From an uncultured Bacilli bacterium (lineage in GTDB: Bacteria > Bacillota_I > Bacilli_A > RF39 > UBA660), in assembly GCA_944372485.1 (NCBI GenBank), contig CALVZI010000030.1:1-34525 (forward strand): a stretch of DNA of 34,525 nucleotides, written 5' to 3'. The position numbers and the translations under genes were made by a program. Positions 1 to 28,700 of this stretch are shown in pieces; position 1 is the first letter of the stretch; every line of letters begins with the position of its first letter. A model generated the notes under the pieces. That model was not told the origin of the DNA. It saw nothing but the letters and a program-made list of their open reading frames with translations, and made no database searches.

Positions 1-1
1 A

Positions 2-658
2 ACGGATCCATATATGTTCGAAGATAAGAGTAGTAGTGTAACAGGAACATTAAAAGATAATAGCGAAATAGGAGAATATGTAACATATGCTGGAAGAAAT
101 TATCGAGTAGTAGAAACTAGTGAATCAGGTACAAAATTAATACTTGATGGATATTATGATAGAAATAATGATGGAACAATAGAAGAATCAGATAAAATGG
201 TATATGGAACAAATTGTACATTGTGTACAACAATAAATGAAGATAATTTTATAAATTGGTTAAGTAATAATAATGAAACTGAAAAACAAAAACTTGCAAG
301 TACAACCTGGTATCGAGGAGATAATTGGACAGGTGGTAATTATAAAACAAATTTAGAAAGTATGAGTAATCCATACGAAGGAAGTGTAGGTTTAATAAGA
401 GTAGGAGAAATGTTATCAGGACAAAGTGAAACAATACTTTCAAAAAATCATACTGTTGCAAATGATTATAATAATGCACAAGATTATTGGACTGCAACAT
501 CATATAGTGCTTCTCAAGCTTGGAACGTGGGCTATGACGGTATTGCGAACGGCAATTCTCATTCCATTGCGGGTGGTGTGCGTCCAGTTATAAACATCTC
601 ATCTGAAATAACTATTACCGGAGGTAATGGTACTCCAAATAGTCCATATGAGATATAA
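2..658 (+). CDS. 3' part (5'-truncated by the window edge) of a DUF6273/C-type-lectin-like surface protein; putative DGR target, paralog of 15182-16987
   Basis: Frame is open from position 2 (acg gat cca tat atg). 1-658 aligns without gaps to 16330-16987 (offset 16329; first 60 nt identical), so ATG14 is an internal Met. C-terminus YWTAT..AWxV..GVRPVI is typical of CLec-fold DGR targets. Confidence 0.85.
   Translation, partial: TDPYMFEDKSSSVTGTLKDNSEIGEYVTYAGRNYRVVETSESGTKLILDGYYDRNNDGTIEESDKMVYGTNCTLCTTINEDNFINWLSNNNETEKQKLASTTWYRGDNWTGGNYKTNLESMSNPYEGSVGLIRVGEMLSGQSETILSKNHTVANDYNNAQDYWTATSYSASQAWNVGYDGIANGNSHSIAGGVRPVINISSEITITGGNGTPNSPYEI
512..586 (+). repeat. Variable-region-like cassette VR-A
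   Basis: GC-rich island (GCG/GTG/GGC codons) at the gene 3' end, homologous to 16205-16279 and 16841-16915. Divergence from the paralog is concentrated here. Confidence 0.75.
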
Positions 659-670
659 AGGATTATACTA

Positions 671-697
671 AAAAAGATTCTATTTAAGAATCTTTTT
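671..697. terminator. Bidirectional intrinsic terminator between convergent genes
   Basis: Perfect 11-bp inverted repeat AAAAAGATTCT-attta-AGAATCTTTTT overlapping the rnhC stop. Confidence 0.65.
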
Positions 698-1643
698 CTA
701 TTTGTAATTTAATTTTTTCAGTATTTTTAAAATTTAATTTTGCTATATCTTTTAATTTTTCAAAACCATATTTTTTAACTATTTTAACACCAGCTTCATC
801 TACACTTGTTCCAGCACCTTTAGGTAAAAACATATCAAGTGTTTCTCCTAATTTAGAAAACTCTTTAATAAAAATATATCTACTAATTAAAGATGCACAA
901 GCAACGGCTAATGATTTATCTTCACCCTTAGTCATAAAAGTAATATTTCTTACAACATTATTACTTTCTCTTAAATAATTATAGTAAATAAAACTTTTGG
1001 CAAATTCATCAACTATTATATAATCTACTTGATCATTTGTTTTATCTTTTAATTTTCCTAAAACTCTATTATGTAATATAGCTTTTATTTTATTCATATT
1101 GATATTTTCACTATACTTTGCATTATATTCTTTATTTGTTAGAATAATACTTTCATATGGTATTTTTTTTATTATTTCTGGTACTACTTTCAATATTTTT
1201 TCATCAGTCATTTTTTTAGAATCTTTTACGCCTAATTCTTCTAAAAATTTAATATTCTCTTTGTTTACATATGAAGCAGTTACAACAATTGGACCAAAAT
1301 AATCACCAGTACCAACTTCATCACTACCGATTGCGGAAGAATTATATATTTTAGGATCAATATAAATTTCTTTTTTATCTTTTTTCTTTTTATCATTAGA
1401 GTTTTTTTCTTCAACTTTTTTTCCTGGATTTAATTTTTGTTCCATTTGTTTCCATAAAGATGCATCAATATCAGCACTAATTCCTTGAAAAACAACTTTA
1501 CCAGATTCATATAAAGTTACAACAGTATCAGCTTCATCTGCTTGAAATACTGCATATGGTGGTGTTTTAGGTCTTTTTTTATCTTTAAAATATTCTATCA
1601 TTTTTTCTTGTGTATTTTTACTTAATTTTAATGTAATAGTCAT
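684..1643 (-). CDS. rnhC: Ribonuclease HIII
   Basis: N-terminal TBP-like domain (VTLYESGKVVFQG) plus RNase H2/H3 motifs IGSDEVGTGDYFGP, GVKDSK, VDEF, AVACASLISR, AKLNFKNT. Confidence 0.95.
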   Translation of the reverse strand: MTITLKLSKNTQEKMIEYFKDKKRPKTPPYAVFQADEADTVVTLYESGKVVFQGISADIDASLWKQMEQKLNPGKKVEEKNSNDKKKKDKKEIYIDPKIYNSSAIGSDEVGTGDYFGPIVVTASYVNKENIKFLEELGVKDSKKMTDEKILKVVPEIIKKIPYESIILTNKEYNAKYSENINMNKIKAILHNRVLGKLKDKTNDQVDYIIVDEFAKSFIYYNYLRESNNVVRNITFMTKGEDKSLAVACASLISRYIFIKEFSKLGETLDMFLPKGAGTSVDEAGVKIVKKYGFEKLKDIAKLNFKNTEKIKLQIEKDS

Positions 1644-7268: not shown

Positions 7269-8231
7269 ATGCCTAAAATTAGTGTTATTGTACCAGTTTA
7301 TAATGTTGAAGCTTATTTAGAAAAAAGTTTAAATAGTTTAAAAAATCAAACATTTAAAGATTTAGAATTTATTATTGTGGATGATGGAAGTACTGATGGT
7401 AGTGCTAAAATTATTAAAGAATTTGTTAAAAGTGATAAACGTTTTAGTTACCATAAAAAGAAAAATGGTGGTTTAAGTGATGCCAGAAATTATGGTATGA
7501 AGTATGCAACTGGTAAGTATCTTGCTTTTTTAGATAGTGATGACTATATTGACTTAGATTTATATGAAAAGATGTATGAAAAAGCAGTAGAAACTAAAGC
7601 TGATGTTGTTGAAGCAGACTTTATTTGGGAATACCCAAATAAACAAGTAAAAGATATTAGTAAAGTAACTGATTTAGGTAGATTACTAGTTGATATTAGA
7701 GTTGTTGCTTGGAACAAATTATATAAAAAATCTTTGATTGATAAAATTGGCGTTAAATTTTCAAAAGGATTACGTTATGAAGATGTTGATTGGTGCTATA
7801 AAATAGTTCCATATATAAAAAAATTTGCTAGTGTTCATGGTACATATATTCACTATATTCAAAGACCAAATTCAATTGCTAATACACAAAATGAAAAAGT
7901 TAGAGATATTTATAAAATATTAGAAAATGCAGTTATATATTATCAAGAAAATAATTTATTAAATAAATATTTTTATGAATTAGAATATTCTTGTTTAAGA
8001 ATTATTTATGGTAGTTCTTTTTTAAGAGTTATGGGAATTAATAATAAAAAACTTAGAAATAGTATTATTAAAGAAGGAACTGATTTTTTAAATAAATATT
8101 TTCCTAATTATCAAAAAAATATTTATTTATTAAGTGATAAAACAAAAAAGAATTATTATTATCGAACTATTAATTCTTTGACACTTCCAATATATATAAA
8201 ACTATTTAGATTATTAAAGAAGGTGAAGTAA
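7269..8231 (+). CDS. Glycosyltransferase family 2
   Basis: SVIVPVYNVE, VDDGSTD, NGGLSDARN, FLDSDD, WNKLY, YED motifs. Confidence 0.93.
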   Translation: MPKISVIVPVYNVEAYLEKSLNSLKNQTFKDLEFIIVDDGSTDGSAKIIKEFVKSDKRFSYHKKKNGGLSDARNYGMKYATGKYLAFLDSDDYIDLDLYEKMYEKAVETKADVVEADFIWEYPNKQVKDISKVTDLGRLLVDIRVVAWNKLYKKSLIDKIGVKFSKGLRYEDVDWCYKIVPYIKKFASVHGTYIHYIQRPNSIANTQNEKVRDIYKILENAVIYYQENNLLNKYFYELEYSCLRIIYGSSFLRVMGINNKKLRNSIIKEGTDFLNKYFPNYQKNIYLLSDKTKKNYYYRTINSLTLPIYIKLFRLLKKVK

Positions 8232-9625
8232 TGAATATAAAGAAATTTAAGATTGAATACTTAATTTATCTTTTCTTATTACTTACACCTTTTTTAGATA
8301 GTTTAAGTTTTATTTTTAGATATTATTATCCAAATAGTATAATTAGTCCAACAACTATTATTAGACCAATTATACCTTGTATTTTATTAATATATATTTT
8401 TATTAAAGATAAAAAATCAAGAAAAGATTTATTTATTCTTGGAATTATTTATTTAATTTATACATTACTTCACTTATTAACATTTAAACATTATTATACA
8501 GAATTTAACGCGGGAAGTGTTTTTAGTGAATTACAATATAATTTAAATTATACTTATATGATAGGTTTATTTTATGTTTTAGTTTGGTTTATTAAACAAA
8601 AAAGATTGCCACATTTAAGAAAATATATAACTTTAATGTTATCTTGTTATTTAGTATTAATATATATTTCAATTATAGCTGGTACTTCAAGTACAACTTA
8701 TTTAGATGGAGTAGGTTTTAAAGGTTGGAATGCTTCTGGTAATGGTTTATCTGCACTATTAGTATTAGGTTTTGGAAGTATTTTTACATATCTATTAAAG
8801 TATATAAAAAAATGGTATATTATTTTATTTATTTTAAGTTTATTTACCTTTTTAATTGTTTTATTTGGAACTAGAACAGCTTTATATGGAAGTGTTTTAA
8901 TAGTGTTTATTTATGGATTATGTTATATATATGATTATGTTTATGTAAAAAAATCAGTTAACTTAAAGAAATTTGGAATTATTCTTACAGCTATAATTAT
9001 TTTAATAGGTTCAGTTTTAGTAGGGGGAAAAAATTCTTTTAAAAGACGAGAAAATATTAAAGAAGTTGGTAGTGAGATGATTGATCCACTTACTAATGAA
9101 GAAACACATTTAACTGGTGATTTAACTAATTTTGTTGTACAAATTAAAAATAATAATTTAGATATAGAGTTAAGTGATGAACAAATTAATGCATTACTTA
9201 AGACTTATGATAAAGCAAATGAAATAGAATTACCAAATAGTAATCGTAGACTTCAACAATTAATATATCAACACTATTTATATCACGAAGAATTTTCTAT
9301 AGAAACATTTTTATTTGGTACTGGTTACTTAAATAATTATCCAGAATTAACTTTAGAAATGGAATTACCAGCTTTCTTATATAACTTTGGAGCTATTGGA
9401 TTAATCTTATATTTAGGACCATTTATATTTATTATAATTAAAGGAATTATTACTTTTATTAAGAAACGTGGAATAGTTAGTATTAATTATTTAATGTATT
9501 TTATATGTATTATTTTAAGTTTATTTTTATCATGTTTAACGGGATATGTATATTTTTATGTATCGTCTATGTTAGTAGTTTTAATGTTATATATTTTATT
9601 TATAGGTGAGGAGGACAAATTATGA
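8231..9625 (+). CDS. O-antigen ligase / Wzy-like polytopic membrane protein
   Basis: About 11-12 TM segments, GFKGW..SGN, GTRT, a large extracytoplasmic loop, FLFGTG and EMEL..LYNFGAIG. Confidence 0.75.
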   Translation: MNIKKFKIEYLIYLFLLLTPFLDSLSFIFRYYYPNSIISPTTIIRPIIPCILLIYIFIKDKKSRKDLFILGIIYLIYTLLHLLTFKHYYTEFNAGSVFSELQYNLNYTYMIGLFYVLVWFIKQKRLPHLRKYITLMLSCYLVLIYISIIAGTSSTTYLDGVGFKGWNASGNGLSALLVLGFGSIFTYLLKYIKKWYIILFILSLFTFLIVLFGTRTALYGSVLIVFIYGLCYIYDYVYVKKSVNLKKFGIILTAIIILIGSVLVGGKNSFKRRENIKEVGSEMIDPLTNEETHLTGDLTNFVVQIKNNNLDIELSDEQINALLKTYDKANEIELPNSNRRLQQLIYQHYLYHEEFSIETFLFGTGYLNNYPELTLEMELPAFLYNFGAIGLILYLGPFIFIIIKGIITFIKKRGIVSINYLMYFICIILSLFLSCLTGYVYFYVSSMLVVLMLYILFIGEEDKL

Positions 9626-10725
9626 AGAAAATAGTATTTGGAATTACAGGACTTACTTTAGGGGGAGCGGAAAGAGTATTAGTTGATATTGCAAATGCTT
9701 TAGTAGATGAATTTGATATTACTATTTTAACTTTATATGGTAAGGGTGCTTTTAGTAAAGAATTAAATAAAAAAATTCATTTAAAATCAATTTATAAAAT
9801 ACCAAGAGAAGAAATGAATAAAGCTTCTAAATTAAAAGTTTCACTTAATTTACTTAATCCAATTACGCGTAAAAAAATATATAACAAATGGATTAAAGAT
9901 AAATATGATGTTGAAGTTGCTTTTTTAGAAGGACCAATGACTTGGTTATTTTCGGAATCTAGTAAAGCTAAAAAAATAGTTTGGGTTCATAATGATATTA
10001 AAGCTGTTTTTGGTGATGGTTTTAAATCCAAATTAAAAGAAAAAATAAATAAAAAAATGTATGATAAGTATGATGATATTGTTTTTGTATCACAAGATAA
10101 TTTAGAAAAATTTAAAGATTGTTTTAAAGAAAATAATAGTCGTAAACATGTTATTTATAATTATATAAATAAAGATGTTGTGATTAATAAGTCTTTAAAA
10201 GGCAAAGCTTTAGAAATAAAAGATGACTTACCAAGTTTTGTACAAGTATCACGTTTAACTGAGCAAAAAGCAGTTGAAAGATTAGTTGAAGTACACAAAC
10301 ATTTAATAGATGAGAACATTATGCATCGTATTTATATTGTTGGTGATGGACCTTTAAAAGATAGTTTACAAGATAAAATAAATAAATTAAATATAAATGA
10401 TACTTTTATATTATTAGGTTCTAGAACTAATCCATATCCTTATATTAAACGAGGAAATTATTTTTTACTTGCTTCTTATTATGAAGGATATCCAATGGTA
10501 TTATTAGAAGCAAAAGTATTAAATAAAAAAATATTAATTACTGATACAGCTGCTCGCGAAGTTTTAAAAGGTTATGAGAATAGTCTAATTGTAACTAATG
10601 ATAAAGCTGGTATTTATGAAGGTATAAAAGAATTTGTTACAAATAAAAATAAAAGTAAAAAAGTTAAAAGTTTTTCTAATGATGAGATATTAGAAGAAAT
10701 AAAAGAATTGTTAGGTGAGTTATGA
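9622..10725 (+). CDS. Glycosyltransferase family 4 (GT-B)
   Basis: LGGAERVL, VSRLTEQK, NPYPY, SYYEGYPMVLLEA. Confidence 0.92.
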   Translation: MKKIVFGITGLTLGGAERVLVDIANALVDEFDITILTLYGKGAFSKELNKKIHLKSIYKIPREEMNKASKLKVSLNLLNPITRKKIYNKWIKDKYDVEVAFLEGPMTWLFSESSKAKKIVWVHNDIKAVFGDGFKSKLKEKINKKMYDKYDDIVFVSQDNLEKFKDCFKENNSRKHVIYNYINKDVVINKSLKGKALEIKDDLPSFVQVSRLTEQKAVERLVEVHKHLIDENIMHRIYIVGDGPLKDSLQDKINKLNINDTFILLGSRTNPYPYIKRGNYFLLASYYEGYPMVLLEAKVLNKKILITDTAAREVLKGYENSLIVTNDKAGIYEGIKEFVTNKNKSKKVKSFSNDEILEEIKELLGEL

Positions 10726-11615
10726 AAATATCAATTTTAACAGCTACATATAACCGAGAACATTTACTTCCTAAGTTATATAATAGTCTAATAGAGAATA
10801 GTAAAACTTTTACTAACTTTGAATGGTTAATTATGGATGATGGATCTAGTGATAATACAGAAGGATTAGTAAAAGGTTGGATTAAAGAAAATAAGATTAA
10901 AATAAAATATCATAAACAAAAAAATGCTGGTAAAATGGCAGCTATTAATAATTTAAGTAAATATGTAACAGGTGAAATTTGGATTGAAGTAGATAGTGAT
11001 GATTATTTTATAGATGGGGTATTAAAAGATATTTCTAAAGATTATGAAACTTTAGATAAAAAAGCTTATGGAATTTTATATTATCGTAAAATACTTAATG
11101 CAGAAACACCAAAAGATGAAAGTTTAAATAATAAAATTATTTCTTTATATCACTTTCACTATAAATATGGATATACTTATGATACTGCTTTGACTTTTAG
11201 AACTAGTGTTCGTAAAAAGTTTAAATATGAACTAGAACACAATGAAAAATTTATTACGGAAGCTAGAACCTATTATAAAATGGATTTGGATAGGGATGGT
11301 TTATTAATTTCTAATAAAGATATTATGATAGCTAATTATGAAGAAGATGGTTATACAAAAGGTATAGTTAATTTATTTAAAAAATATCCATATGGTTATT
11401 ATGAATTTTTTAAAGAATTACTTAATTACCCTAAGCAAGATATTTTATTTAAACAACGTCTATATATGGTAAAACATTACATTTTATTTAGCGTTTTGAC
11501 AAAAATCGGGTTTACTAAAAGTGTTAAGCATGTTAAAATATTAAAGAATAGAGTGATGGTAATGTTATTATATTTTCCTGGAATGGTAAAAACAAAGATA
11601 AAATTTAGGGGGTAA
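10722..11615 (+). CDS. Glycosyltransferase family 2
   Basis: ILTATYNR, DDGSSD, NAGKMAAIN, VDSDD, EKFITE. Confidence 0.92.
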   Translation: MKISILTATYNREHLLPKLYNSLIENSKTFTNFEWLIMDDGSSDNTEGLVKGWIKENKIKIKYHKQKNAGKMAAINNLSKYVTGEIWIEVDSDDYFIDGVLKDISKDYETLDKKAYGILYYRKILNAETPKDESLNNKIISLYHFHYKYGYTYDTALTFRTSVRKKFKYELEHNEKFITEARTYYKMDLDRDGLLISNKDIMIANYEEDGYTKGIVNLFKKYPYGYYEFFKELLNYPKQDILFKQRLYMVKHYILFSVLTKIGFTKSVKHVKILKNRVMVMLLYFPGMVKTKIKFRG

Positions 11616-11617
11616 TT

Positions 11618-13834
11618 ATGAAAAAGAGTACAAAATCAGTAATGCTTACAATGGGATGTTTATATTGTGGAATGACTTCTGTTAATGCTTTAGAAAGTAA
11701 TACTAATGAAGTTTCCAAAAGTACAGTAGAAACTGCTGAAACAAAAACTTTAACAACATCAGCTCCAAAAACTGGTTGGACTACAATTAATGGGGATACC
11801 TATTATATTAATCCGGATGGTAGTAAGTATACCGGTTTTTTAGAGTGGGAAGGTAATACTTATTTCTTTAGTCGTGTTGATGGTAAAATGCGTACTGGTT
11901 ATTTTTCAATTGATTATAACAATTATTATTTTGATAATGATGGAAAAATGTTAACAGGTTGGCAAACAATAAATAAAAAAACATATTATTTTGATCAAGA
12001 CGGAAAACAACATTATGGATTCTTAAAACTAGATGATGGAACATATTTCTTAAGTAGAGTAGATGGAACAAAAAGAACAGGATATTTCTCAATAGATTAT
12101 GTAAATTATTATTTTGACAACAATGGAAAAATGCTAACAGGTTGGCAAACAATAAATAAAAAAACATATTATTTTGATCAAGACGGAAAACAACATTATG
12201 GATTCTTAAAACTTAGTGATGGAACATATTTCTTAAGTAGAGTAGACGGAACAAAAAGAACAGGATATTTTTCAATTGATTATGAGAATTATTATTTTGA
12301 TAATGATGGAAAAATGTTAACAGGTTGGCAAACGATAGATAATAAAACATTTTATTTTGATCAAAATGGGAAACAACATTATGGATTCTTGAAACTAGAT
12401 GATGGAACATATTTCTTAAGTAGAGTAGATGGAACAAAAAGAACAGGATATTTCTCAATAGATTATGTAAATTATTATTTTGACAACAATGGAAAAATGT
12501 TAACAGGTTGGCAAACAATAAATAAAAAAACATATTATTTTGATCAAAACGGAAAACAACATTATGGATTCTTAAAACTAGATGATGGAACATATTTTTT
12601 AAGTAGAGTAGATGGAACAAAAAGAACAGGATATTTCTCAATAGATTATATAAATTATTATTTTGATAGTAATGGTAAAATGCAAACTGGTATTCAAACA
12701 GTTAAAGGTAAAAAATATTTCTTTAATAGTGAAGGAAAACAAGTTAATGGTTTGCAAAAATGGAATGGACACTATTATTTCTTTAGTCGTGTAAATAATG
12801 AAATGCGTACTGGTTTATTTCAAATAGATTATGTATTACATTATTTTAAGGAAGATGGTACTGCTTATAATGGTATTTATACTAAGGGAAAGGATAAATA
12901 TTATTTTGATAGTAAGGGTGCTATTAAAAATGGTTTCCAAAAAGTTGATGGTAAGACATATTTCTTTAGTAGGGTAGACTTTAGAATGCGTTTTGGATGG
13001 GTGTTTGTTGATGGCTATAAATATTATTTAGATAAAACAACTGGTGAAGTACATACGGGAATATATCGTGTTGATGGTATTGATTATAAATTTGATAGTG
13101 CTGGACGATTACAAACAGGTTGGCTTGAAAGTGATGGAAAAACTTACTATTTAAATGCCTATGGAGAAAAAGTTGTCGATTGGCAATGGATTGAAGGGGA
13201 AAAATGTTTCTTTAATTCACTTGGTGTTTTAATAAAAAAGAATGCTAAATATATTATTGATGTTTCAACACATCAAGGTAAAATAGATTGGGGTAAAGTA
13301 AAAAATGCTGATATGATTGATGGAGTTATTCTCCGAATCGGTTATGGAAGTTATTATGAAGATGGACAAGTTGCAGCTAATATCAAAGCTTTAAAACGTT
13401 TAAATATTCCATATGGTGTATATTTGTTTAGTTATGCAGAAAATAAAAGTGAAGCATTAAAAGAGTCAAAAAATATGTTAAATATTATCAAAAAATATGA
13501 TATGAAACCTACATTAGGAGTTTATTATGATATTGAATCTTGGGAATTATCAAATGCTAGTTCAAGTAATATTACAACTGCTAAATATGATGAGATAATA
13601 ACAACATTTGTTAATAATATGCATAATTCAGGTTATAAGGATACTTATGTATATACAGATTTAAATCATATAAGGAATATCTTAAGTACTAATATGCGTA
13701 AATATATTAGATGGGTTGCTCAATATAATCATTATTGTAATTATGATGGTGAATATTTTATGTGGCAATATTCTAGTAGTGAAAGAATTCCAGGTATTAG
13801 TACTAATGTTGATGGAAATGTTTGGTTTAAGTAG
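11618..13834 (+). CDS. Secreted GH25 muramidase with choline/glucan-binding-type cell-wall-binding repeats
   Basis: Signal peptide (..SVNA), many ~20-aa YYF..G.M.TGW repeats, C-terminal GH25 motifs IDVSTHQGKIDW, YYDIE, WQYSS, NVDGN. Confidence 0.9.
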   Translation: MKKSTKSVMLTMGCLYCGMTSVNALESNTNEVSKSTVETAETKTLTTSAPKTGWTTINGDTYYINPDGSKYTGFLEWEGNTYFFSRVDGKMRTGYFSIDYNNYYFDNDGKMLTGWQTINKKTYYFDQDGKQHYGFLKLDDGTYFLSRVDGTKRTGYFSIDYVNYYFDNNGKMLTGWQTINKKTYYFDQDGKQHYGFLKLSDGTYFLSRVDGTKRTGYFSIDYENYYFDNDGKMLTGWQTIDNKTFYFDQNGKQHYGFLKLDDGTYFLSRVDGTKRTGYFSIDYVNYYFDNNGKMLTGWQTINKKTYYFDQNGKQHYGFLKLDDGTYFLSRVDGTKRTGYFSIDYINYYFDSNGKMQTGIQTVKGKKYFFNSEGKQVNGLQKWNGHYYFFSRVNNEMRTGLFQIDYVLHYFKEDGTAYNGIYTKGKDKYYFDSKGAIKNGFQKVDGKTYFFSRVDFRMRFGWVFVDGYKYYLDKTTGEVHTGIYRVDGIDYKFDSAGRLQTGWLESDGKTYYLNAYGEKVVDWQWIEGEKCFFNSLGVLIKKNAKYIIDVSTHQGKIDWGKVKNADMIDGVILRIGYGSYYEDGQVAANIKALKRLNIPYGVYLFSYAENKSEALKESKNMLNIIKKYDMKPTLGVYYDIESWELSNASSSNITTAKYDEIITTFVNNMHNSGYKDTYVYTDLNHIRNILSTNMRKYIRWVAQYNHYCNYDGEYFMWQYSSSERIPGISTNVDGNVWFK
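11890..12690 (+). repeat. Intragenic tandem repeat, 183-bp (61-aa) unit, about 4.4 copies
   Basis: AAGTAGAGTAGA(T/C)GGAACAAAAAGAACAGGATATTT recurs at 12052, 12235, 12418 and 12601 (period 183). Array ends are approximate. Confidence 0.95.
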
Positions 13835-13888
13835 GAAAAAGCTTGAAATAACTAAATAAAATATGTTATATTTTAACTAGGTGGTAGT

Positions 13889-15028
13889 ATGACAGCAACT
13901 GTGAATAAGGATAGAAAATCAAATTTTGAATTAATGCGTATAATATCAATGTTTATGATTATATTATGGCATTATATAATGCATACAGATTTATTATCAA
14001 AAACAGATGGAACTTTACATTTGTTTTTAGATATACTTTATGTTTCAACTGCGGTTCATGTAAATTCATTTATATTGTTAACAGGTTATTTTAATTATAA
14101 TAAAGAGTTTAAAATAAAAAAAATAATTCCTTTAATAACTGCCACTTGGTTTTATAAAGCTGTATTTGCTTTAATATTTTCGATATTATCGTTAGCAGCT
14201 ATTTCTAAGTTTGATTTATTATTATTTTTATTACCATTAAATTACTCTTATCGTTTTGGAAACTTTTATTGGTTTATAAATATTTATATAGCTTTATATT
14301 TATTAAGTCCTTTTATAAATATTTTAATAAAAAATATAAATCAAAAACAACATCGGCTATTATTGCTTTTATCTTTCTTTTTGTTATCAGTAATACCTTA
14401 TATTACAAAACAACAAGTAATAGATAATAGTGGTTATAGTGTTATGTCATTTGTCTTTATTTACTTAATTGGATCTTATTTTGGTAAATATAAAATAAAA
14501 GATAATTTACACTTTAAAAATTATTCAAGATATAAAAGACAATTAATATTCTTAATATCACTAATTACAATAATAATTATTAATGCTTTATTAATTTGTA
14601 CAAGTTCTTATATAAGTAATTTTAATAATAGTTTTTTAACTTATATTAATGATGTAATACTAACTGGTAAAGTTAATTTTACAAGTCCACTAATTATTAT
14701 AGAAAGTGTTTGTTATTTATTATTATTTGAAACATTTAAATTTAAAAATAAATTAATAAATAATTGGGCAAAACTTATGTTTGGAGTATATTTAGTACAT
14801 GAGAATAATTTCTTATTTAATTATATTTATGATTATTTACCATTAGGTAAAGAAAATTATGTAAGTGGTTATAAAGTATTACTAATATTATTTGGAATGT
14901 GTTTATTAATATTAATTATTTCTAGTATTATTGAATTATTAAGACAATTATTATTTAAATTTATGAATAAGCGAAAGTTTATTATAAACATTCAAAATAA
15001 AATTAAACATTATGTAGAATCTTTTTAG
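13889..15028 (+). CDS. Acyltransferase family 3 (OafA-like O-acetyltransferase)
   Basis: RKSNFELMRIISMFMIILWH, VNSFILLTGYF, YWFI..Y, FGVYLVH; about 10 TM segments. Confidence 0.9.
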   Translation: MTATVNKDRKSNFELMRIISMFMIILWHYIMHTDLLSKTDGTLHLFLDILYVSTAVHVNSFILLTGYFNYNKEFKIKKIIPLITATWFYKAVFALIFSILSLAAISKFDLLLFLLPLNYSYRFGNFYWFINIYIALYLLSPFINILIKNINQKQHRLLLLLSFFLLSVIPYITKQQVIDNSGYSVMSFVFIYLIGSYFGKYKIKDNLHFKNYSRYKRQLIFLISLITIIIINALLICTSSYISNFNNSFLTYINDVILTGKVNFTSPLIIIESVCYLLLFETFKFKNKLINNWAKLMFGVYLVHENNFLFNYIYDYLPLGKENYVSGYKVLLILFGMCLLILIISSIIELLRQLLFKFMNKRKFIINIQNKIKHYVESF

Positions 15029-15181: not shown

Positions 15182-16987
15182 ATGAGAATGTCTACAAGAA
15201 AGAGAAAAAATATTATTATTGTAATATTACTCGTAATGGTAGTAGGAATGACTATAGCTTATTCAGCATTAAGCCAGTATCTAACAATAAATGGTACATC
15301 AAGTATTACTAGTGATTTTAAAGTAGTATTTACTGATATACAGGAAGGAACAATGAATTCTGCAACTACAGTTAATAAAGAAATAACAGCTCCAACAACA
15401 GCAACTTTCCAAGTAAATTTAAAAAAACCAGGAAGCAGTGCTGAATATAATGTAACAGTGCAAAATCAAGGTAAGTTAGATGCATACTTAGAAAGCATAG
15501 AAGGAATAGATGAAGCAAATGAAAAAGCTCCAACAGATATAACTTTTAAAATAAGTGGAATAACAAGATATACAAAATTACAAGTAAATGAATCGAAAAC
15601 ATTTAAAGTAATAGTAACATTTGATTCTAGTGCAACAAGCTTGCCTTCTGAATCGAAGCAATTAACACTAAAACTTAATTTTGCTCAAGATAGTGGAAAT
15701 GCTCCAGAACCTGAACCAGAGCAACAAACAGTAACAGAAATAACTAATACATTATTAAGTAGTGGTACAACCTATAATTATTTAGATGGAACATATCTAA
15801 AAGGTAAACCAACTACAAACTATGTATGGTTTAATGGATTTATGTGGCGAATCATGGGAGTGAATGCAGATGGAAGTATTCGCATGATAACAGAAGAAAA
15901 TGTAACAACAATCCCACGGGGAGCAAAAGATACTGCAGAACAATATGATAGTAGTTATGTAAATGATTGGTTAAATAATTATTTTTATTCAAAATTAAAA
16001 AATAAAGAATGGTTAGTACAACAAACATGGTGTAGTGAAACAACAGAAGATGATACATCAGCCCGAACAACATGTTCAAAAAATTTATCACAAATACCAC
16101 AATATGTAGGTTTACTATCAATAGATGAATATAATTTAGCAAGTAACTCATCAAGTTATTTAGTAAATTCACAAATATTTTGGACATTAACGCCATATAG
16201 TGCTTCAGATGCTTGGGACGTGTACAGCGATGGCTATGCGAGCAATTATTCTGTGTCTTATGCGCGCGGGCTTCGTCCAGTTATAAATGTCTCATCTGAA
16301 ATAACCATTACCGGAGGTAATGGTACTCTAACGGATCCATATATGTTCGAAGATAAGAGTAGTAGTGTAACAGGAACATTAAAAGATAATAGTCAAATAG
16401 GAGAATATGTAACATATGCTGGAAGAAATTATAGAGTAGTAGAAACAGGGACAAGTGGAACAAAATTAATACTTGATGGATATTATGATAGTGATAATAA
16501 TGGAACAATAGATTCATCAGATAAAATGGCATATGGAACAAACTGTACATTGTGTACAACAATAAATGAAGATACTTTCTTAAATTGGTTAAGTAATAAT
16601 GATGAAACTGAAAAAGCTAAACTTGCAAGTACAACATGGTATCGAGGAGATTATTGGACTGATGGTAATTATAAAACGAATTTAGAAAGTATAAGTAATT
16701 CATATAATGGAAGTGTAGGGTTGATTCGAGTAGGAGAAATGTTATCTGGGCAAAGTGAAACAATACTTTCAAAAAACCATACCGTAACAAATAGTTATAA
16801 TAATGCAGTAACATATTGGACTGCAACACCATATAGTGCTTCCTATGCTTGGCGCGTGAGCTACTTTGGCGATGCGTCCATTACTTCTGTGTCTTATGCG
16901 AACGGGCTTCGTCCAGTTATAAATATCTCATCTAAAATAACCATTACCGGAGGTAATGGTACTCCAAATTCACCATATGAGATATAA
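15182..16987 (+). CDS. Exported surface protein: signal/anchor, beta-rich stalk, PEPEPE linker and two tandem DUF6273/CLec-like domains; putative DGR target with two variable regions
   Basis: Basic-hydrophobic N-terminus ending in AYSALSQYLTING. Two domains each end W(T)xTPYSAS.AW.V...G.A.....S.A.GLRPVIN.SS.ITITGGNGT...PY. Confidence 0.85.
   Translation: MRMSTRKRKNIIIVILLVMVVGMTIAYSALSQYLTINGTSSITSDFKVVFTDIQEGTMNSATTVNKEITAPTTATFQVNLKKPGSSAEYNVTVQNQGKLDAYLESIEGIDEANEKAPTDITFKISGITRYTKLQVNESKTFKVIVTFDSSATSLPSESKQLTLKLNFAQDSGNAPEPEPEQQTVTEITNTLLSSGTTYNYLDGTYLKGKPTTNYVWFNGFMWRIMGVNADGSIRMITEENVTTIPRGAKDTAEQYDSSYVNDWLNNYFYSKLKNKEWLVQQTWCSETTEDDTSARTTCSKNLSQIPQYVGLLSIDEYNLASNSSSYLVNSQIFWTLTPYSASDAWDVYSDGYASNYSVSYARGLRPVINVSSEITITGGNGTLTDPYMFEDKSSSVTGTLKDNSQIGEYVTYAGRNYRVVETGTSGTKLILDGYYDSDNNGTIDSSDKMAYGTNCTLCTTINEDTFLNWLSNNDETEKAKLASTTWYRGDYWTDGNYKTNLESISNSYNGSVGLIRVGEMLSGQSETILSKNHTVTNSYNNAVTYWTATPYSASYAWRVSYFGDASITSVSYANGLRPVINISSKITITGGNGTPNSPYEI
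16205..16279 (+). repeat. Variable-region-like cassette VR-B1 (internal)
   Basis: Differs from 16841-16915 at 18 positions; 17 are codon positions 1-2 of NNC/NNT codons. Confidence 0.85.
16841..16915 (+). repeat. Variable-region-like cassette VR-B2 (C-terminal)
   Basis: Same fixed scaffold as VR-B1 (GCT TGG nnC GTG nnC nnC nnT GGC nAT GCG nnC AnT nnT TCT GTG TCT TAT GCG nnC GGG CTT CGT CCA), 636 nt downstream of it. Confidence 0.85.
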
Positions 16988-17019
16988 GGAAGTTGAAACG
17001 ATAATAATAAATAAGTAAT

Positions 17020-17059
17020 CCCCCACGTGGCGTATTTGCCACAGCGGGTGCTTTTTTTT
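17020..17059 (+). terminator. GC-rich hairpin / intrinsic terminator after the putative DGR target
   Basis: GTGGC-gtattt-GCCAC core, extendable with CCC/GGG, followed by T8. Confidence 0.7.
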
Positions 17060-17123: not shown

Positions 17124-18209
17124 ATGAAAAAGTTAATATTCTTTGCTTATGATTTAAATGTAGGTGGGATTGAAAAAGCTTTAGTTGAATTATTAAAACA
17201 TATAGATTATAAAAAATATGAGGTTACTTTGGTATTAGAAAAAAAAGATGGGCCTTTATTAAAAGAAATACCTAGTTGTATTAAAGTAATGGAATATAAA
17301 GTTAGTAATAATAAAATTGTAATAGTTAGAAAAGTTTGTAATTTGATTAAAAGAATAAAGTTTATGTTTAAATATAAAAATAAATTTGATTATTCTTGTA
17401 GTTATGCAACATATTCAATTCCTGGTGCAGTTTTAAGTAAGATTGCTTCAAATAATTCAAGTTTATATGTTCATAGTGCTTATGAATTAGCTTTTAAAAA
17501 TAAAGATGATTATATTAACTTTTTTAATGGTTTGGGTGTAACTGGTTTTAAACATATTATATTTGTTTCTAATGAATCAAGAGAGTATTTTAATAAAGTT
17601 TTTACTGGTGTTAAAACTTTAACTTGTAATAATTTTATTAATGAAGATAAGATAAAAGAAATGTCTTTAGAGAGTATTAATTTAAAAAAGAAAGCTAAGT
17701 TTCTATTTACTTTTGTTGGTCGTTTAGATGAAAGTTCTAAACGTATTACTAAATTAATTAAGTTAATTAAATATTTAAAAGATTGTGGTATATCTATTGA
17801 ACTTTGGATTGTTGGTGATGGCCCAGATTATAATTTATATAAAGATTTGGTTAGTAAATATAAATTAGAAAGTGAAATAACTTTTGTTGGTATGAAATCT
17901 AATCCATATCCTTATATCAAAAAAGCAGATTATATCATTTTAACTTCTGATTATGAAGGATTTCCTATGGTTTACAATGAAGCAATTATTTTAAATACTA
18001 AAATATTAACAACAATTAATATTAGTGATGATTATATTTCAATACCAAATAATTTTGGTTATATTATTTCTAAAGATGAAGAAAAAATGGGTAAAGAAGT
18101 TTTAAATATTTTAAAGTCTGATAGTTTAGAAATTAAAAAAATTAGTTATAAAAATATTAATAAAGAAAAAGTAAAATTATTGGAAAATATTTTTGATGAT
18201 ATTATGTAA
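17124..18209 (+). CDS. Glycosyltransferase family 4 (GT-B)
   Basis: VGGIEKAL, FVGRLDESSK, NPYPY, SDYEGFPMVYNEA; paralogous to 9622-10725. Confidence 0.92.
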   Translation: MKKLIFFAYDLNVGGIEKALVELLKHIDYKKYEVTLVLEKKDGPLLKEIPSCIKVMEYKVSNNKIVIVRKVCNLIKRIKFMFKYKNKFDYSCSYATYSIPGAVLSKIASNNSSLYVHSAYELAFKNKDDYINFFNGLGVTGFKHIIFVSNESREYFNKVFTGVKTLTCNNFINEDKIKEMSLESINLKKKAKFLFTFVGRLDESSKRITKLIKLIKYLKDCGISIELWIVGDGPDYNLYKDLVSKYKLESEITFVGMKSNPYPYIKKADYIILTSDYEGFPMVYNEAIILNTKILTTINISDDYISIPNNFGYIISKDEEKMGKEVLNILKSDSLEIKKISYKNINKEKVKLLENIFDDIM

Positions 18210-18235
18210 ATTAGAGCTTAAAGCTTTAATTTTTT
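18208..18235 (+). terminator. Possible intrinsic terminator
   Basis: AAATTAGAGCT..AGCTTTAATTT stem followed by a T run. Confidence 0.5.
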
Positions 18236-18280
18236 CTTTATATTTGGTATAATTAAAAGGTAGAAAAAAGGAGAGTTAGT

Positions 18281-19081
18281 ATGTTAAAAAATATTTGGTA
18301 CAATTTTAAACGATATCAGTTTTTAATGCAACAAATGATTACACGTGATTTTAAAGTAAAATACAAAAGATCAGTGTTAGGAATTTTATGGAGTTTACTA
18401 TATCCATTACTTATGATGATGGTTATGGCGGTAGTATTCTCACAAGTGTTTAGATTCCGTATGGAAGGGGTAAACTATTTAGTTTATTTAATGACTGGTT
18501 TAGTTGTTTGGAACTATTTTAGTGAAGCAACTAATTTAGGTATGATGTCAATTGTTGGTAATTTTAATTTAATGACAAAAGTTTATATTCCAAAATATAT
18601 TTTTCCATTATCAAAATGTCTATTTGTAGGAATTAACTTTTTACTTACTTTAATTCCATTATTACTTATAATTTTAGTTACTGGTAGTGGAGAAACTAAG
18701 TGTTTTATAAATATTTATTATTTATTACTACCATATGCATATGTATGCTTGTTATTATTCGCAATTGGAGTATCTTTTATTACATCTACTATTTCAGTAT
18801 TTTTAAGAGATATGTTCTATATTTATGGAATTATTTTAACAATTTGGAATTATTGGACACCAATTTTCTATGACATTAGTATGTTAAATCCAACACTACA
18901 AAAATTATTCCAATTTAATCCGTTATATCAAATCGTAAACTTTACTAGAACAATTATTTTATATGGTAAAATGCCAAGCTTAATGAATTTTGTTCTATGT
19001 GGTGTATTTGCGTTAGGAACATTTATTGTTGGATGTATTGTATTTAGAAAGAATCAAGATAAATTTATTTACTATATTTAA
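18281..19081 (+). CDS. wzm: Polysaccharide ABC exporter, permease
   Basis: RDFKVKYKRSVLGILWSLLYP, TPIFY, NPLY; six TM segments, ABC-2 type. Confidence 0.92.
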   Translation: MLKNIWYNFKRYQFLMQQMITRDFKVKYKRSVLGILWSLLYPLLMMMVMAVVFSQVFRFRMEGVNYLVYLMTGLVVWNYFSEATNLGMMSIVGNFNLMTKVYIPKYIFPLSKCLFVGINFLLTLIPLLLIILVTGSGETKCFINIYYLLLPYAYVCLLLFAIGVSFITSTISVFLRDMFYIYGIILTIWNYWTPIFYDISMLNPTLQKLFQFNPLYQIVNFTRTIILYGKMPSLMNFVLCGVFALGTFIVGCIVFRKNQDKFIYYI

Positions 19082-19093
19082 TGGAGGTTAATT

Positions 19094-19831
19094 ATGATTG
19101 AATTAAAAAATGTTTCCATGAAATTTAATTTAGGAATTGAAAAAAATAATTCGTTAAAAGAAACTTTTATTCATTTCTTTGAATTTAAAAAGAAAAAAAA
19201 GAAACCAGAAGAATTTTGGGCTTTAAAAGATGTAAGTTTTAAAATAAAAAAAGGTGAGGTTGTTGGTTTAATAGGTACTAATGGTGCAGGTAAATCAACA
19301 ATGTTAAAAGTTGTTTCAGGAGTTATGAAACCTACTACTGGTACTGTTAAAGTAGGGGGAGTAATTTCACCTATGATCGAACTTGGAGCTGGATTTGATA
19401 TGGATTTGACTGCTCGTGAAAATATTTATTTAAATGGGGCTGTCTTAGGTTATTCAAAGAAATTTTTAGATGAAAAGTTTGATGAGATAGTTGAATTTTC
19501 AGAACTTCGTGATTTCTTGGATGTTCCAGTTAAAAACTTTTCTTCAGGTATGACAGCTAAACTTGCTTTTTCTATTTCAACTGCTGTTAATCCTGAAATA
19601 TTAATTGTTGATGAAATTTTATCTGTTGGGGACATAAAATTTCAAGAAAAGAGCAAAAATAAAATGATGGAAATGATTCATGGAGGAACTACTGTTTTAT
19701 ATGTTTCTCATTCACTTCAAGCTATTAAAGATATATGTACAAAAGTAATTTGGTTAGATCATGGTAAAATTGTAAAAATAGGGGATACTGAAGAAATTTG
19801 TAATGAGTATTATGATTCATTAATGAAATAG
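19094..19831 (+). CDS. wzt: Polysaccharide ABC exporter, ATPase (no C-terminal carbohydrate-binding domain)
   Basis: FWALKDVSF, Walker A GTNGAGKST, FSSGM, ILIVDEILSVGD, VSH; 245 aa. Confidence 0.93.
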   Translation: MIELKNVSMKFNLGIEKNNSLKETFIHFFEFKKKKKKPEEFWALKDVSFKIKKGEVVGLIGTNGAGKSTMLKVVSGVMKPTTGTVKVGGVISPMIELGAGFDMDLTARENIYLNGAVLGYSKKFLDEKFDEIVEFSELRDFLDVPVKNFSSGMTAKLAFSISTAVNPEILIVDEILSVGDIKFQEKSKNKMMEMIHGGTTVLYVSHSLQAIKDICTKVIWLDHGKIVKIGDTEEICNEYYDSLMK

Positions 19832-19843
19832 ATGGAGGTAAAT

Positions 19844-21895
19844 ATGGCAAAATTAAATATACTTACAGATAAAAGAATTAAATATGTTTTCTTTGACATT
19901 TTTGATACTATTGTTTATCGTAATGTACAACCGGAATTTACAAAAAAAATTTGGGCCAATCATTTGACTAGAACACTTGATTTAAATGTTAATATGCTTG
20001 ATTTATATAAGACTCGTAATCGTCTTGAAATGGAAATAGGAGCTAAAAATGAACATGCTGGAAATGATTGTGAATTTACATATAAAGAATTAATTGAAGA
20101 ACTTTATCACCATTATAAATTTAAGAAGATTTCTTTTAAAGATTTTTATGAAGCTTCTAAAAATTTAGAAGTGACAATTGAACAAAATTCTCAAAGTGTT
20201 GATGAAGATATTATTAAAGAAATTAAAAATTTAAAAAAAGAGGGTAAGAAAATATATTGTGTTTCTGATATGTATTTATCTAAAGAAATGATTAAAGAAA
20301 TATTTAAACATCATGGTATATTAGATTATTTTGATGATATTTTTGTTTCATGTGAAAATTTAAAAAATAAGAAAACAGGTAATTTATATAATTATGTTTT
20401 AGATAAACTTAAAGCTGAACCACGTGAATGTGCGATGGTTGGTGATAATTATTCATCAGATTATGAAACACCAAAAAGATTAGGAATTGAAGCTGTTCAT
20501 TTAAAAAGACAAAGTAAGTATGAATTTTATGATAAATATTTAACAGAACATGAAACAAGTAATGTTTATGCTTGCCTTGATGAACTTTCTAAAACATCTA
20601 CAGATAACTTTGAACATGCTATATTTTCGTTATATGTTTTTATTGAAAAATTATATTTTGAATTAATTAAAAATAATCATGATGAAGTATTCTTTTTATC
20701 AAGAGAAGGGGAATATTTAAAGAAATTATTTGATGCATATGTAGAAAAAACTAATGGTAAAAAGATTAAAAGTCATTATTTATTAGTTTCTCGTAAAGCA
20801 ACTTATTTACCTTCTTTAAAAAATATTGAAGAAGAAAATTTTGATACTTTATTAAAACAATATTCTTATATTACAGTAACAGAATTTTTAAAAAGTTTAA
20901 ATTTTAGTAAAGATGAATTAACTAAAATTGAAGATAGTTTTAGAGAAGAATCTAGAGAGTTAATTAAAAAGTTAAAGTTAGATAAAAAAGATAAAAAGAA
21001 TTTAAAAGCTATTATTACTGATAATTTTGATGAAAAGATTCCTAATTTTCAAAAGTCTAATGTTTTTAAACAATTAAAAGATAACAAAGTGTTTAAAGAA
21101 ATATTTGAAAAAAATAGAGTTGAACAAAAAGAGTTGTTTAAGAAATATGTAAAGGAAATGACTCCTTCTAAGAGAATTTGTGTTGTTGATGTTGGATGGA
21201 ATGGTTCTATTCAAGATAATATTCAAAATATTTTAGGTAGTGATTATGAAGTTAGTGGTTACTTATATGGTTTAGTTAGTCGTGATTTTAAAGCTAAACC
21301 TAAGAATAAAAAAGGATTAATATTTCATAATGTGCCATCATTAAGTTCTAATTATTCTCTTTATTATGAAAATAGAACAATTTTTGAAATTCTTTTAGGA
21401 GCTTCTCATGGTAGTGCAAATCGTTATACATTAAAAAATAATAAAGTAGAAGTTTTATTATTTGAAAAAGATGAGGAAAAGAAAATATATAAAAATGTTG
21501 TTTCTAAAATTCAAAATAACATGTTTAATACTTATCAAAAATTATTAGATATGTTATGTGATGGATTTTATGATTTAGATGTTGTTTATAAAAAAATAAA
21601 TCAAATTCATTTTAATATGGTTTTTAAACCAACTAAAGAACAATTAGTCTTCTTTAATAAGATTTACCACTACGAAAATTTTGGGGTTTTTGAATTTACA
21701 GAATTTAATTTGAAAAAGAAATTAACTTGGAAGTATTATATTAAAGAAAATGCAAAATTTGTTTTAAGACATAAGGTATTTTTCTATGATACTTTCTGGC
21801 CAGTATTAAAATTAAATAATGAGAAACTTGTTATTCCTAAATTTATTTATGTTAATCATAGAAAAATAAAATTAAAAATGAAAGGTATTATATAG
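19844..21895 (+). CDS. HAD phosphatase + phosphoribosyltransferase-like bifunctional protein; putative PRPP-dependent ribofuranosyltransferase
   Basis: N-terminal HAD motifs FFDIFDT, VSDMY, K, VGDNYSSD; C-terminal FLSREG, SRKA, VVDVGWNGSIQ. Start ATG19844 after GGAGGT. Confidence 0.75.
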   Translation: MAKLNILTDKRIKYVFFDIFDTIVYRNVQPEFTKKIWANHLTRTLDLNVNMLDLYKTRNRLEMEIGAKNEHAGNDCEFTYKELIEELYHHYKFKKISFKDFYEASKNLEVTIEQNSQSVDEDIIKEIKNLKKEGKKIYCVSDMYLSKEMIKEIFKHHGILDYFDDIFVSCENLKNKKTGNLYNYVLDKLKAEPRECAMVGDNYSSDYETPKRLGIEAVHLKRQSKYEFYDKYLTEHETSNVYACLDELSKTSTDNFEHAIFSLYVFIEKLYFELIKNNHDEVFFLSREGEYLKKLFDAYVEKTNGKKIKSHYLLVSRKATYLPSLKNIEEENFDTLLKQYSYITVTEFLKSLNFSKDELTKIEDSFREESRELIKKLKLDKKDKKNLKAIITDNFDEKIPNFQKSNVFKQLKDNKVFKEIFEKNRVEQKELFKKYVKEMTPSKRICVVDVGWNGSIQDNIQNILGSDYEVSGYLYGLVSRDFKAKPKNKKGLIFHNVPSLSSNYSLYYENRTIFEILLGASHGSANRYTLKNNKVEVLLFEKDEEKKIYKNVVSKIQNNMFNTYQKLLDMLCDGFYDLDVVYKKINQIHFNMVFKPTKEQLVFFNKIYHYENFGVFEFTEFNLKKKLTWKYYIKENAKFVLRHKVFFYDTFWPVLKLNNEKLVIPKFIYVNHRKIKLKMKGII

Positions 21896-21903
21896 GTGGT
21901 TAT

Positions 21904-23070: not shown

Positions 23071-23081
23071 TGAGGAATATT

Positions 23082-24206: not shown

Positions 24207-24214
24207 AGGTATTT

Positions 24215-27102: not shown

Positions 27103-27111
27103 GGTGTGTTT

Positions 27112-28035: not shown

Positions 28036-28036
28036 T

Positions 28037-28381
28037 ATGATAGAATCTTTTAAAAAGAATCAAAAAGGTATATATTTAATTTGTATTTCAAGTATTTTTG
28101 CTTGTATTGGACAATTACTATGGAAATTATCTAGTGATGGAAATTTATTGTTACTTTTAGTCGGTTTTGGATTTTATGGATTAGGTGCTTTAATTATGTT
28201 AATAGCTTATAAATTTGGTAGTTTATCAGTTATTCAACCATTTTTAAGTTTAAACTATGTACTTAGTATTATCTTTGGTTATTTCTTCTTAAATGAAGTA
28301 ATAACACTAAATAAAGTTATAGGTATATTAATAATTATGATAGGTGTAACTTTAATTGCAGGTGGTGATAATAGTGATTAA
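28037..28381 (+). CDS. Small 4-TM SMR/EamA family protein (ArnE/F-like flippase subunit)
   Basis: 114 aa, GQLLWK, GSLSVIQPFLSLNYV, FLNE.IT..K..G. Confidence 0.8.
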   Translation: MIESFKKNQKGIYLICISSIFACIGQLLWKLSSDGNLLLLLVGFGFYGLGALIMLIAYKFGSLSVIQPFLSLNYVLSIIFGYFFLNEVITLNKVIGILIIMIGVTLIAGGDNSD

Positions 28382-28700
28382 TTATGTACTAATATTAATT
28401 ATGACTGTTATGGGATCAGTTGCTAGTTTATTCTTAAAAAAAGCTTCTAGTTTTAAAAATTTAAAAGAGTTATTATTAAATATTAATTTATATATAGGTG
28501 GTTTTCTATATTTAGGAGCGGCTATATTAAATATAATTGTTTTAAAAAGTATGGAATATTCAATTGTTTTACCACTTACATCATTAACTTATGTATGGAC
28601 AATGTTTATTTCTTACTTATTCTTAAAAGAATATATTTCACTAAAAAAAATTATTGGTGTTTCATTAATTGTATTTGGAGCAATAATAATTGTTTTATAA
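28374..28700 (+). CDS. Small 4-TM SMR/EamA family protein (ArnE/F-like flippase subunit)
   Basis: ASLFLKKA, YSIVLPLTSLTYVW, FLKE.IS.KK..G; start GTG28374 after GGTGGTGA. Confidence 0.8.
   Translation: MINYVLILIMTVMGSVASLFLKKASSFKNLKELLLNINLYIGGFLYLGAAILNIIVLKSMEYSIVLPLTSLTYVWTMFISYLFLKEYISLKKIIGVSLIVFGAIIIVL

Follow-up and report, generated by a model that had tools for sequence, protein, structure and literature searches.

One reverse transcriptase and several dispersed templates probably diversify a family of DUF6273 surface-protein genes in an uncultured gut Bacilli bacterium

How can the variable cassettes of near-identical genes come to differ at positions other than adenines? The usual description of diversity-generating retroelements (DGRs), and the usual basis for their detection, is a single reverse transcriptase (RT) with a single template and no more than a few targets, which depart from the template only at adenines. 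The question is raised by a locus at the start of contig C30 in the metagenome-assembled genome (MAG) of an uncultured Bacilli bacterium (GCA_944372485.1, here G000; 1.18 Mb in 98 contigs, about 25% G+C, 91% complete, 6.67% contamination). The window, that is, the whole stretch of DNA analysed, covers positions 1–34525 of this contig (34,525 nt) and begins at the contig end. It carries three related cassettes, of which the one nearest to its start, variable region A (VR-A), is the main subject here. A sequence-only reading of the window had claimed that near-identical target genes are rewritten from at least two related templates, in departure from the one-template model. The reading favoured by the present analysis, with a probability of about 0.68, is that VR-A is the C-terminal variable region of a gene in a DGR-diversified family, which would be served by one RT operon and at least two template repeat (TR)–spacer modules, several templates being used.

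VR-A (507..587, plus strand; 81 nt, homologous to the TRs and enclosing the stretch 512–586 singled out before) lies in the 3' part of a DGR target gene (2..658, plus strand; second DUF6273 domain), the open frame of which runs off the window start and ends with a stop codon at 656–658. The cassette ends 24 codons ahead of the stop, inside the DUF6273 domain; the match of 2..658 to this domain (E=8.9e-4, 19.6 bits) does not reach the cut-off of 23.5. The complete two-domain DUF6273 target gene of the window (15182..16987, plus strand; 601-aa open reading frame, ORF) was matched with 37.2 bits, above the cut-off, in two stretches. It contains a first-domain cassette, B1 (16200..16280, plus strand), and a second-domain cassette, B2 (16836..16916, plus strand), both located by scaffold pattern, BLAST and alignment. 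Positions 1–658 are colinear with 16330–16987, the second domain of the complete gene, and the likeness of about 90% previously judged by eye was confirmed by counting (519/576 positions, or 90.1%, outside the cassette). Inside 507–587, identity to the colinear cassette is only 50/81 (61.7%). The scaffold that VR-A was said to have in common with the B cassettes (GCTTGGNNNGTG-N(40–60)-CGTCCA) was matched three times in the window (518–586, 16211–16279 and 16847–16915) and in none of 100 shuffled sequences, and the reported differences between VR-A and the B cassettes (GGT/GGC, CAT/GTG, GGT GTG/GGG CTT and C/T at third positions) are all present in the alignment.

The core of a DGR was located on another contig. 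One RVT_1 match was obtained in the whole genome (C77:4122–5126; 51–53 bits, cut-off 29.6, test value 52.8), and the encoded sequence includes LPIGNMSSQ and YMDD; IGxxxSQ is a mark of DGR RTs. None of the NCBIfam RT models matched this RT at its cut-off. The ORF upstream of the RT is Avd-like: Pfam bAvd scored 38.3 bits (E=2e-9) against a cut-off of 40, and NCBIfam DivGenRetAVD scored 38.9 bits (E=8.6e-10) against a cut-off of 80. The two libraries agree and both profiles are covered over their full length, with scores below the curated threshold in each case, narrowly so for bAvd. Between the template repeat TR2 and avd lies a 136-aa MutS-like ORF (MSL; MutS_I, 21.3 bits, cut-off 20.6). The operon order is thus MSL, Avd-like ORF, RT, with TR2 about 240 nt upstream of these ORFs.

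TR2 itself (C77:3080–3160) is an 81-nt repeat made up entirely of AAY-type template codons; it is immediately preceded by a GC-rich hairpin and, ahead of that, by a target gene with two cassettes. By BLAST, VR-A matches the TR2 locus with 80% identity over 81 nt. A second, orphan template repeat, TR1 (C16:5652–5732), stands in the order target gene, hairpin, TR, spacer of about 175 nt and terminator, and no RT follows. The flanks of TR1 and TR2 are alike (92.7% over 354 nt); the repeats differ at nine of 81 positions, seven of which are third codon positions in the cassette frame. TR1 and TR2 are separate loci and not alleles, since the C16 genes downstream of TR1 are confined to that place in the assembly. 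By alignment count, the spacer is about 97% identical between the C77 and C16 loci, and it is 96% identical to that of a same-genus genome; this far better preservation than that of the TR points to a constrained RNA module, the orphan locus included. The RNA of hairpin, TR and spacer folds better than 100 of 100 shuffled sequences (z=-3.4). A scan of the assembly for AAY codons, aimed at a third TR, returned only TR1 and TR2. A template array near an RT, which the sequence-only reading had proposed to look for, was not seen: the templates occupy separate loci, each behind a target gene. Several DGRs sharing targets, a possibility that it named, are not seen either, the genome having one RT.

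BLAST with eight seeds yielded 16 cassettes on ten contigs (ten second-domain and six first-domain), nearly all of them near contig ends, together with further N-terminal fragments of the family on other contigs; the family comprises at least ten chromosomal DUF6273 surface-protein genes. The reading frame is open through the cassette in all 16 copies. The assembly breaks at nearly every family member (window 1–658; ends of C2, C12, C16, C18, C28, C83 and C96), the cassettes lying 300–540 nt from contig ends, and the size of the family and the pairing of first- and second-domain cassettes are therefore underestimated.

For the comparison of cassettes, adenine columns were defined as the 22 columns with A in both TRs, and non-A columns as the 57 with another base in both. 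Between B1 and B2, 16/22 adenine columns are changed, compared with 1/57 non-A columns (p=5e-11). The same counts were obtained for the cassettes of C12 and C16, which are probably one gene split over two contigs, and C2 and C28_913 differ at 13/22 and 2/57. Against TR2, C18 differs at 15/22 and 2/57 (p=3.5e-9), and VR-A at 10/22 and 5/57 (p=5.6e-4). In these comparisons, variation thus falls mainly where the TRs have adenine (p from 5e-11 to 6e-4). Between cassettes, this adenine bias is the hallmark of a DGR and is visible without reference to any particular template.

At the non-A columns, the cassettes fall into groups. VR-A differs from B1 and from B2 at 13/57 columns each. Two differences each were counted within the cassette pairs of C55 and of C77, and two also between C2 and C28_913, which belong to different genes; VR-A, C96, C28_277 and both C83 cassettes stand outside these signature groups. 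First- and second-domain flanks are about 55% identical. No more than two non-A differences were found in three of five physically linked domain-1/domain-2 pairs, as compared with one of 55 unlinked pairs (p=0.001); because the two cassettes of a gene usually share a signature despite flanks of such low identity, the templates look gene-specific. The signature common to B1 and B2 matches neither TR, with seven non-A mismatches to TR1 and 10–11 to TR2 (seven and 11 for B2), and at least one further template is therefore implied. The C55 pair shares the GGG CTT end of B1 and B2, as does a loose end in the public run X1, there with a different variable codon. The genome-wide collection and clustering at non-A positions that had been suggested for checking the multi-template idea thus produced 16 cassettes, signature groups and two TRs, and a single template with A wherever the three window cassettes differ was not found among them. 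Gene conversion between B1 and B2 was considered as a source of their likeness and was rejected, the variable codons not being homogenised (16/22 differ). Two first-domain cassettes carry length changes relative to both TRs, a 3-nt insertion in one and a 3-nt deletion in the other (C77:2207–2278 and C55:11651–11716), which are not expected from simple replacement by either 81-nt template.

Third codon positions were compared as a measure of divergence inside and outside the cassettes, rows with C55_11611 (3-nt deletion) and C77_2169 (3-nt insertion) being left out as their 5' part is out of register. VR-A and B2 differ at 11/27 third positions in the cassette and at 28/182 in the flanks (Fisher p=0.006), and this cassette is therefore more diverged than its flanks; the possibility, raised beforehand, that VR-A is an old copy with synonymous divergence like that of its flanks does not agree with these counts. 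B1 and B2 show the reverse, with 64/155 differences in the flanks and 1/27 in the cassettes (p=5e-5), so that flanks and cassettes are decoupled in both directions. For C2 and C28_913 the figures are 0/27 in the cassette and 33/181 in the flanks.

Which template wrote VR-A? At the nine columns that discriminate between TR1 and TR2, VR-A agrees with TR2 at seven and with TR1 at one, and on the 57 shared non-A columns it has five mismatches to TR2 and ten to TR1. By its non-A signature, VR-A is thus assigned to the TR2 lineage. The template that had been predicted for VR-A from the window proved to be two specified bases off TR2 (AAC for GAC and CGT for CGC). The residual mismatches of VR-A to TR2 are a base of the codon preceding GCT TGG, four bases at CAT TCC (GTG TCT in TR2) and CGT in place of CGC; with five to six non-A mismatches remaining, the assembled TR2 is therefore not the exact donor. 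Four of the six changes lie in two adjacent codons, within six bases (P=0.007 for random placement). The pattern NNT TCC (CTT, CTT, CTT and ATT) also occurs in both cassettes of the C55 gene and of the C83 gene, as might be expected if a template allele read AAT TCC there. In each of the four public runs covering the TR, CGT is the predominant form. The exact donor of VR-A would have been a TR2-like allele a few bases off the assembled one.

Under the reading favoured here, RNA of a TR would be reverse transcribed in such a way that adenines are randomised and all other bases are copied faithfully, and each cassette would keep the non-A signature of the template that last rewrote it. The orphan TR1 would be used in trans by the single RT; B1 and B2, to judge from their signature, would both have been written from another template outside the assembly; and further templates would exist or have existed. 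As to the claim of at least two related templates, its general part stands, TR1 and TR2 being present and B1 and B2 fitting neither, while the donor of VR-A and the template of the B cassettes, which it also called for, were not found. The multi-template inference is largely borne out, in another architecture, with dispersed templates and one RT.

Public sequencing runs provided a view beyond the MAG. The data consisted of Logan contigs from four runs of four studies, aligned to the TR2 locus at 85% likeness; the runs in which this DNA occurs are metagenomes of chicken or bird gut. Further TR alleles are seen on contigs that run from the hairpin through the TR into the spacer, and the alleles vary between samples. 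Run X1 contains a TR2-like contig (depth 11) and a different TR allele (depth 9.9) with CAG at columns 4–6, T at column 19 and a TR1-like 3' half; run X2 contains two TR alleles at depths of 10.5 and 8.2. Two templates thus co-occur at similar depth in independent samples. At the listed positions (13 of the 15 differences of the contig), the second X1 allele has the letters that take away each of the six non-A mismatches between the C12 cassette and TR1, so the signatures record real templates. An exact 21-nt motif of the TR flank gave no match in public metagenome contigs and one in public genome contigs, namely a same-genus MAG in which the TR is cut by the contig end. The single metagenome match to the hairpin motif (L023) was discarded as a chance match in a GTP-cyclohydrolase-like gene of a GC-rich organism.

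Two relatives, G145 and G110, were examined for the number of TRs. In G145, which belongs to another genus (50 contigs, 94% complete), an RT-linked TR is accompanied by a 95%-identical TR-like copy behind the same type of hairpin on another contig, and a third copy is more diverged (C1:57226–57526, C10:33319–33477 and C31:1132–1217; L038, L039 and L040). The 3' flank of the 95%-identical copy continues like the coding tail of a target gene. In G110, one TR and one VR were found. RT homologues were present in 52 of the 121 family genomes searched, G000 itself being counted.

The placement of the templates was traced to a hairpin element behind the target genes. Among the ten second-domain cassettes, this element was found behind four only (B2, C28_913, C16 and C77), about 95 nt after the cassette and behind the stop codon. 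In the window, the conserved post-stop element (16976..17059, plus strand; GC-rich hairpin, then T-run) is 93% identical to the C77 element and includes a terminator-like site (17032–17051) plus T8. Alignment with C77 and C16 places the absence of TR and spacer behind B2 exactly between hairpin and T-run, and the hairpin behind B2 then reads as an intrinsic terminator. The same exact presence or absence of the module between GC hairpin and T-run was noted on comparing window 16976–17059, C28:1080–1159 and L014 1287–1410, and the TR-less form also occurs at C28, in the same-genus genome G003 (contig C60) and in joints of runs X4 and X8. The TR–spacer module looks like a discrete unit of insertion or deletion, which would turn a terminator into read-through into a template. 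Behind the C18 cassette, an apparent degenerate 3' end of the spacer plus a terminator was recognised by reading of the sequence. A role of the hairpin as target-recognition element of the DGR was considered and appears doubtful, as it lies behind the stop codon, is missing at six of ten second-domain cassettes and resembles a terminator where no TR follows.

A number of observations weigh against the use of several templates as set out above. A perfect match between cassette and TR occurs nowhere, the best being C18 with TR2 (two non-A mismatches). Counted for each TR separately, the non-A mismatches of VR-A amount to 6/59 for TR2 and 10/57 for TR1, beyond the limit of fewer than four non-A-to-N changes applied by a published DGR finder (PMC6642488); among the 16 cassettes, only C18 with TR2 falls within it. 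A template with AAT TCC was not found in this assembly, where the AAY-codon scan and a search with a motif for such a template led only to TR1, TR2 and VR-A itself; with up to two mismatches, the motif had no matches in five genomes of the genus, all of them incomplete MAGs, so that absence does not follow. No template of the B type (GGG CTT) is among the public-run variants listed, which does not imply its absence. No hairpin or terminator-like site was found behind VR-A (window 500–900). The C77 cassettes, which adjoin TR2, fit TR1 better (6–7 versus 11–12 mismatches), the two cassettes of P0001, a public homologue, disagree (GL versus GV), and two of the five linked pairs are discordant (C28 and C83, with 12 and 16 differences), their cassettes looking degenerate. 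The public-run data are assembled contigs, in which no within-population variation at any cassette was observed. MAG cassettes can match alleles that are not on the TR contigs of the MAG, which warns of strain mixing or wrong joins; the MAG is fragmented and 6.7% contaminated, and its links between genes and TRs cross a repeated hairpin, so that chimeric joins and a strain mixture are possible.

Against this background, VR-A might be understood as a fossil, written from an ancestral TR2-like allele, no longer a target and since drifted, in a genome with one working template and other signatures that are frozen snapshots. The lack behind VR-A of the hairpin element seen at four of ten second-domain cassettes is in line with this, and so is the divergence of VR-A from TR2 (5/57 non-A columns), which resembles that of its flanks from the closest paralogue, C18 (91.0% identical; 17/178 third positions). 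A non-T base before GCT TGG is common to VR-A and the most degenerate cassettes, C28_277 and C83_2812, and TR–VR pairs with extra non-A changes in zeta crAss-like phages are read as formerly active (PMC12386605). We nevertheless regard the fossil as unlikely: the clustering of four of six changes in two adjacent codons (P=0.007) and the recurrence of NNT TCC in four other cassettes of both domains, which looks templated, speak against drift, two distinct TR loci are physically present, and VR-A is more diverged from B2 than the flanks are (p=0.006). A single drifting template would also leave unexplained the near-identity of B1 and B2, and of C2 and C28_913, at non-A sites at which 7–13 differences are seen elsewhere. 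It is still less probable that the multi-template state exists in no single cell and arose by assembly from strains with one TR each, merged into chimeric contigs across the hairpin. The contamination of 6.67%, the 98 contigs and the position of nearly every family member at a contig end would suit such an artefact, as would public-run unitigs that break inside the hairpin, TR alleles that differ between samples and C77 cassettes that fit TR1 and not the adjoining TR2. It is opposed by the different and unique genes downstream of TR1 and TR2, which argue that these are not alleles of one locus, by the TR allele pairs of near-equal depth in two unrelated runs (9.9/11 in X1 and 10.5/8.2 in X2), and by the TR-like copy on a separate contig in G145, a member of another genus.

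That no retroelement acts at VR-A, its variation being due to ordinary paralogue divergence, gene conversion and selection on a ligand-binding loop, is highly improbable. Such an origin would agree with the 16 of 16 copies that are open through the cassette and with some agreement between cassette type and the tree of the flanks, in which VR-A and C83_2170 are sisters and C2 is close to C28_913. Against it, the cassettes vary chiefly where the TRs have adenine (p from 5e-11 to 6e-4), gene conversion would homogenise the variable codons, at 16/22 of which B1 and B2 differ, and a complete set of RT, Avd-like ORF and TR is present in the genome.

Within the multi-template reading, a more specific scheme can be put forward tentatively. 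One RT–Avd–MSL core may serve a dispersed library of TR–spacer modules, each co-transcribed with its own gene from a place between hairpin and T-run, private to that gene and preferring both of its cassettes. Modules would be gained, lost and recombined, with the result that the templates evolve and the scaffold is diversified too; VR-A, the B1/B2 pair and the C55 pair would then stem from different modules, some of them outside the assembly.

The surroundings of these loci supplied further observations. The complete target gene stands within a cell-envelope locus (window 8231–15028 and 17124–30498) with an O-antigen-ligase-like protein, a choline-binding GH25 muramidase (11618–13834), an acyltransferase, a glycosyltransferase and two DUF6020 membrane-protein paralogues. 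The orphan TR1 is followed on C16 by a peptidase S24-like (signal-peptidase-like) ORF of 710 aa (L013 2–1396, minus strand). Upstream of the MSL–avd–RT operon, TTGACA and TATAAT are separated by a 23-nt spacer consisting almost entirely of (GT)11 (C77:3351–3385, equal to L001 514–548), at which the public-run contigs break; a promoter scan did not call the pair at this spacing. With three GT units fewer, the spacer would be 17 nt long, and expression of the RT operon may hence be phase-variable. Downstream of the RT, C77:5272–5784 contains a gene start like the 5' ends of the target genes (69–75% DNA identity over about 360–500 nt).

The target protein was also compared with known proteins and with its relatives. 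On the question of a C-type-lectin fold, as expected of a DGR target domain, an AlphaFold2 model from 24 sequences was of insufficient quality for a fold comparison (mean pLDDT 49.1), and PDB sequences searched with a profile gave nothing below E=0.64. The S-H-S motif of VR-A was found in none of the public protein homologues examined; P0001 has VR-A-like flanks but a cassette of the TR2 type (S-V-S...G-V). An orthologue of VR-A was sought in four other genomes of the genus, which contain the family as well as an RNase HIII-like gene such as follows VR-A, but never side by side, and a comparison of the VR-A cassette across species is therefore impossible with them.

Should one RT indeed use several dispersed templates, RT-anchored surveys that rely on near-perfect non-A identity would undercount both targets and templates; in this genome, the usual adenine-only rule with one template would recover one of the 16 cassettes. 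The sequence space of a DGR would be larger than one template allows, since scaffold codons and the cassette end differ between templates, and the addressing of cDNA among near-identical targets would become directly testable in a natural system. Should the other signatures be only fossils, the locus would still document clearly the turnover of templates in a gut member of the Bacilli with a small genome.

The prototype of DGRs is that of the Bordetella phage BPP-1, with one TR, one VR and a phage tail-fibre target. The system described here resembles it in the RT with its Avd-like partner, the randomised TR adenines in a C-terminal VR, the spacer RNA downstream of the TR and the GC-rich cassette end. 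It differs in the number of TR–spacer modules (at least two, at separate loci on the chromosome) and of cassettes (16 in at least ten genes, two per gene), in an additional MutS-like ORF, and in a hairpin that is located behind the stop codon and missing at most targets. As judged from its sequence, the system is an MSL-class DGR with many remote targets.

The following comparisons refer to the searched text of the papers cited. MSL-containing DGRs constitute "architecture D" of Wu et al. 2018 (PMC5758913), in which the Legionella DGR is included; the small MutS-like ORF with avd and RT and the chromosomal surface-protein targets are common to both, whereas remote targets of one TR are described there and two TRs are found here. 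Several TRs per RT are not discussed in the searched text of Wu 2018 or Roux 2021. They are nevertheless in print, and the claimed departure from the one-template model is to that extent smaller than first stated: Stenotrophomonas sp. SKA14 has two TRs and six VRs, in a survey where 271 DGRs with several VRs include 79.9% with one TR (Yan et al. 2019, PMC6642488), and zeta crAss-like phages have the pairs TR1-VR1 and TR2-VR2 and a putative TR3-VR3 (PMC12386605). One RT, at least two related templates and extra non-A differences in some TR–VR pairs are features common to these cases and to the present assembly. Their templates apparently lie within one cassette, unlike the orphan TR with conserved spacer on another contig here, and they apparently also lack a counterpart to templates placed behind individual target genes, to gene-specific signatures of two cassettes and to further templates implied by signatures. 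An orphan TR–spacer locus, templates behind individual targets and gene-specific two-cassette signatures were not encountered in the literature searched, which comprised article text. In the DGR of Treponema denticola (PMC4891356), many remote targets are likewise served, TR variants differ between strains, silent sites included, target genes persist where the core DGR has been lost, and multiple TR types occur in one sample; the likeness to the present system thus extends to remote targets, TR variation, leftover targets and several TR types per sample. In Treponema, the presence of several TRs is put down to a host being colonised by more than one strain, whereas here two TR loci stand in one assembly and alleles of equal depth were found in other samples.

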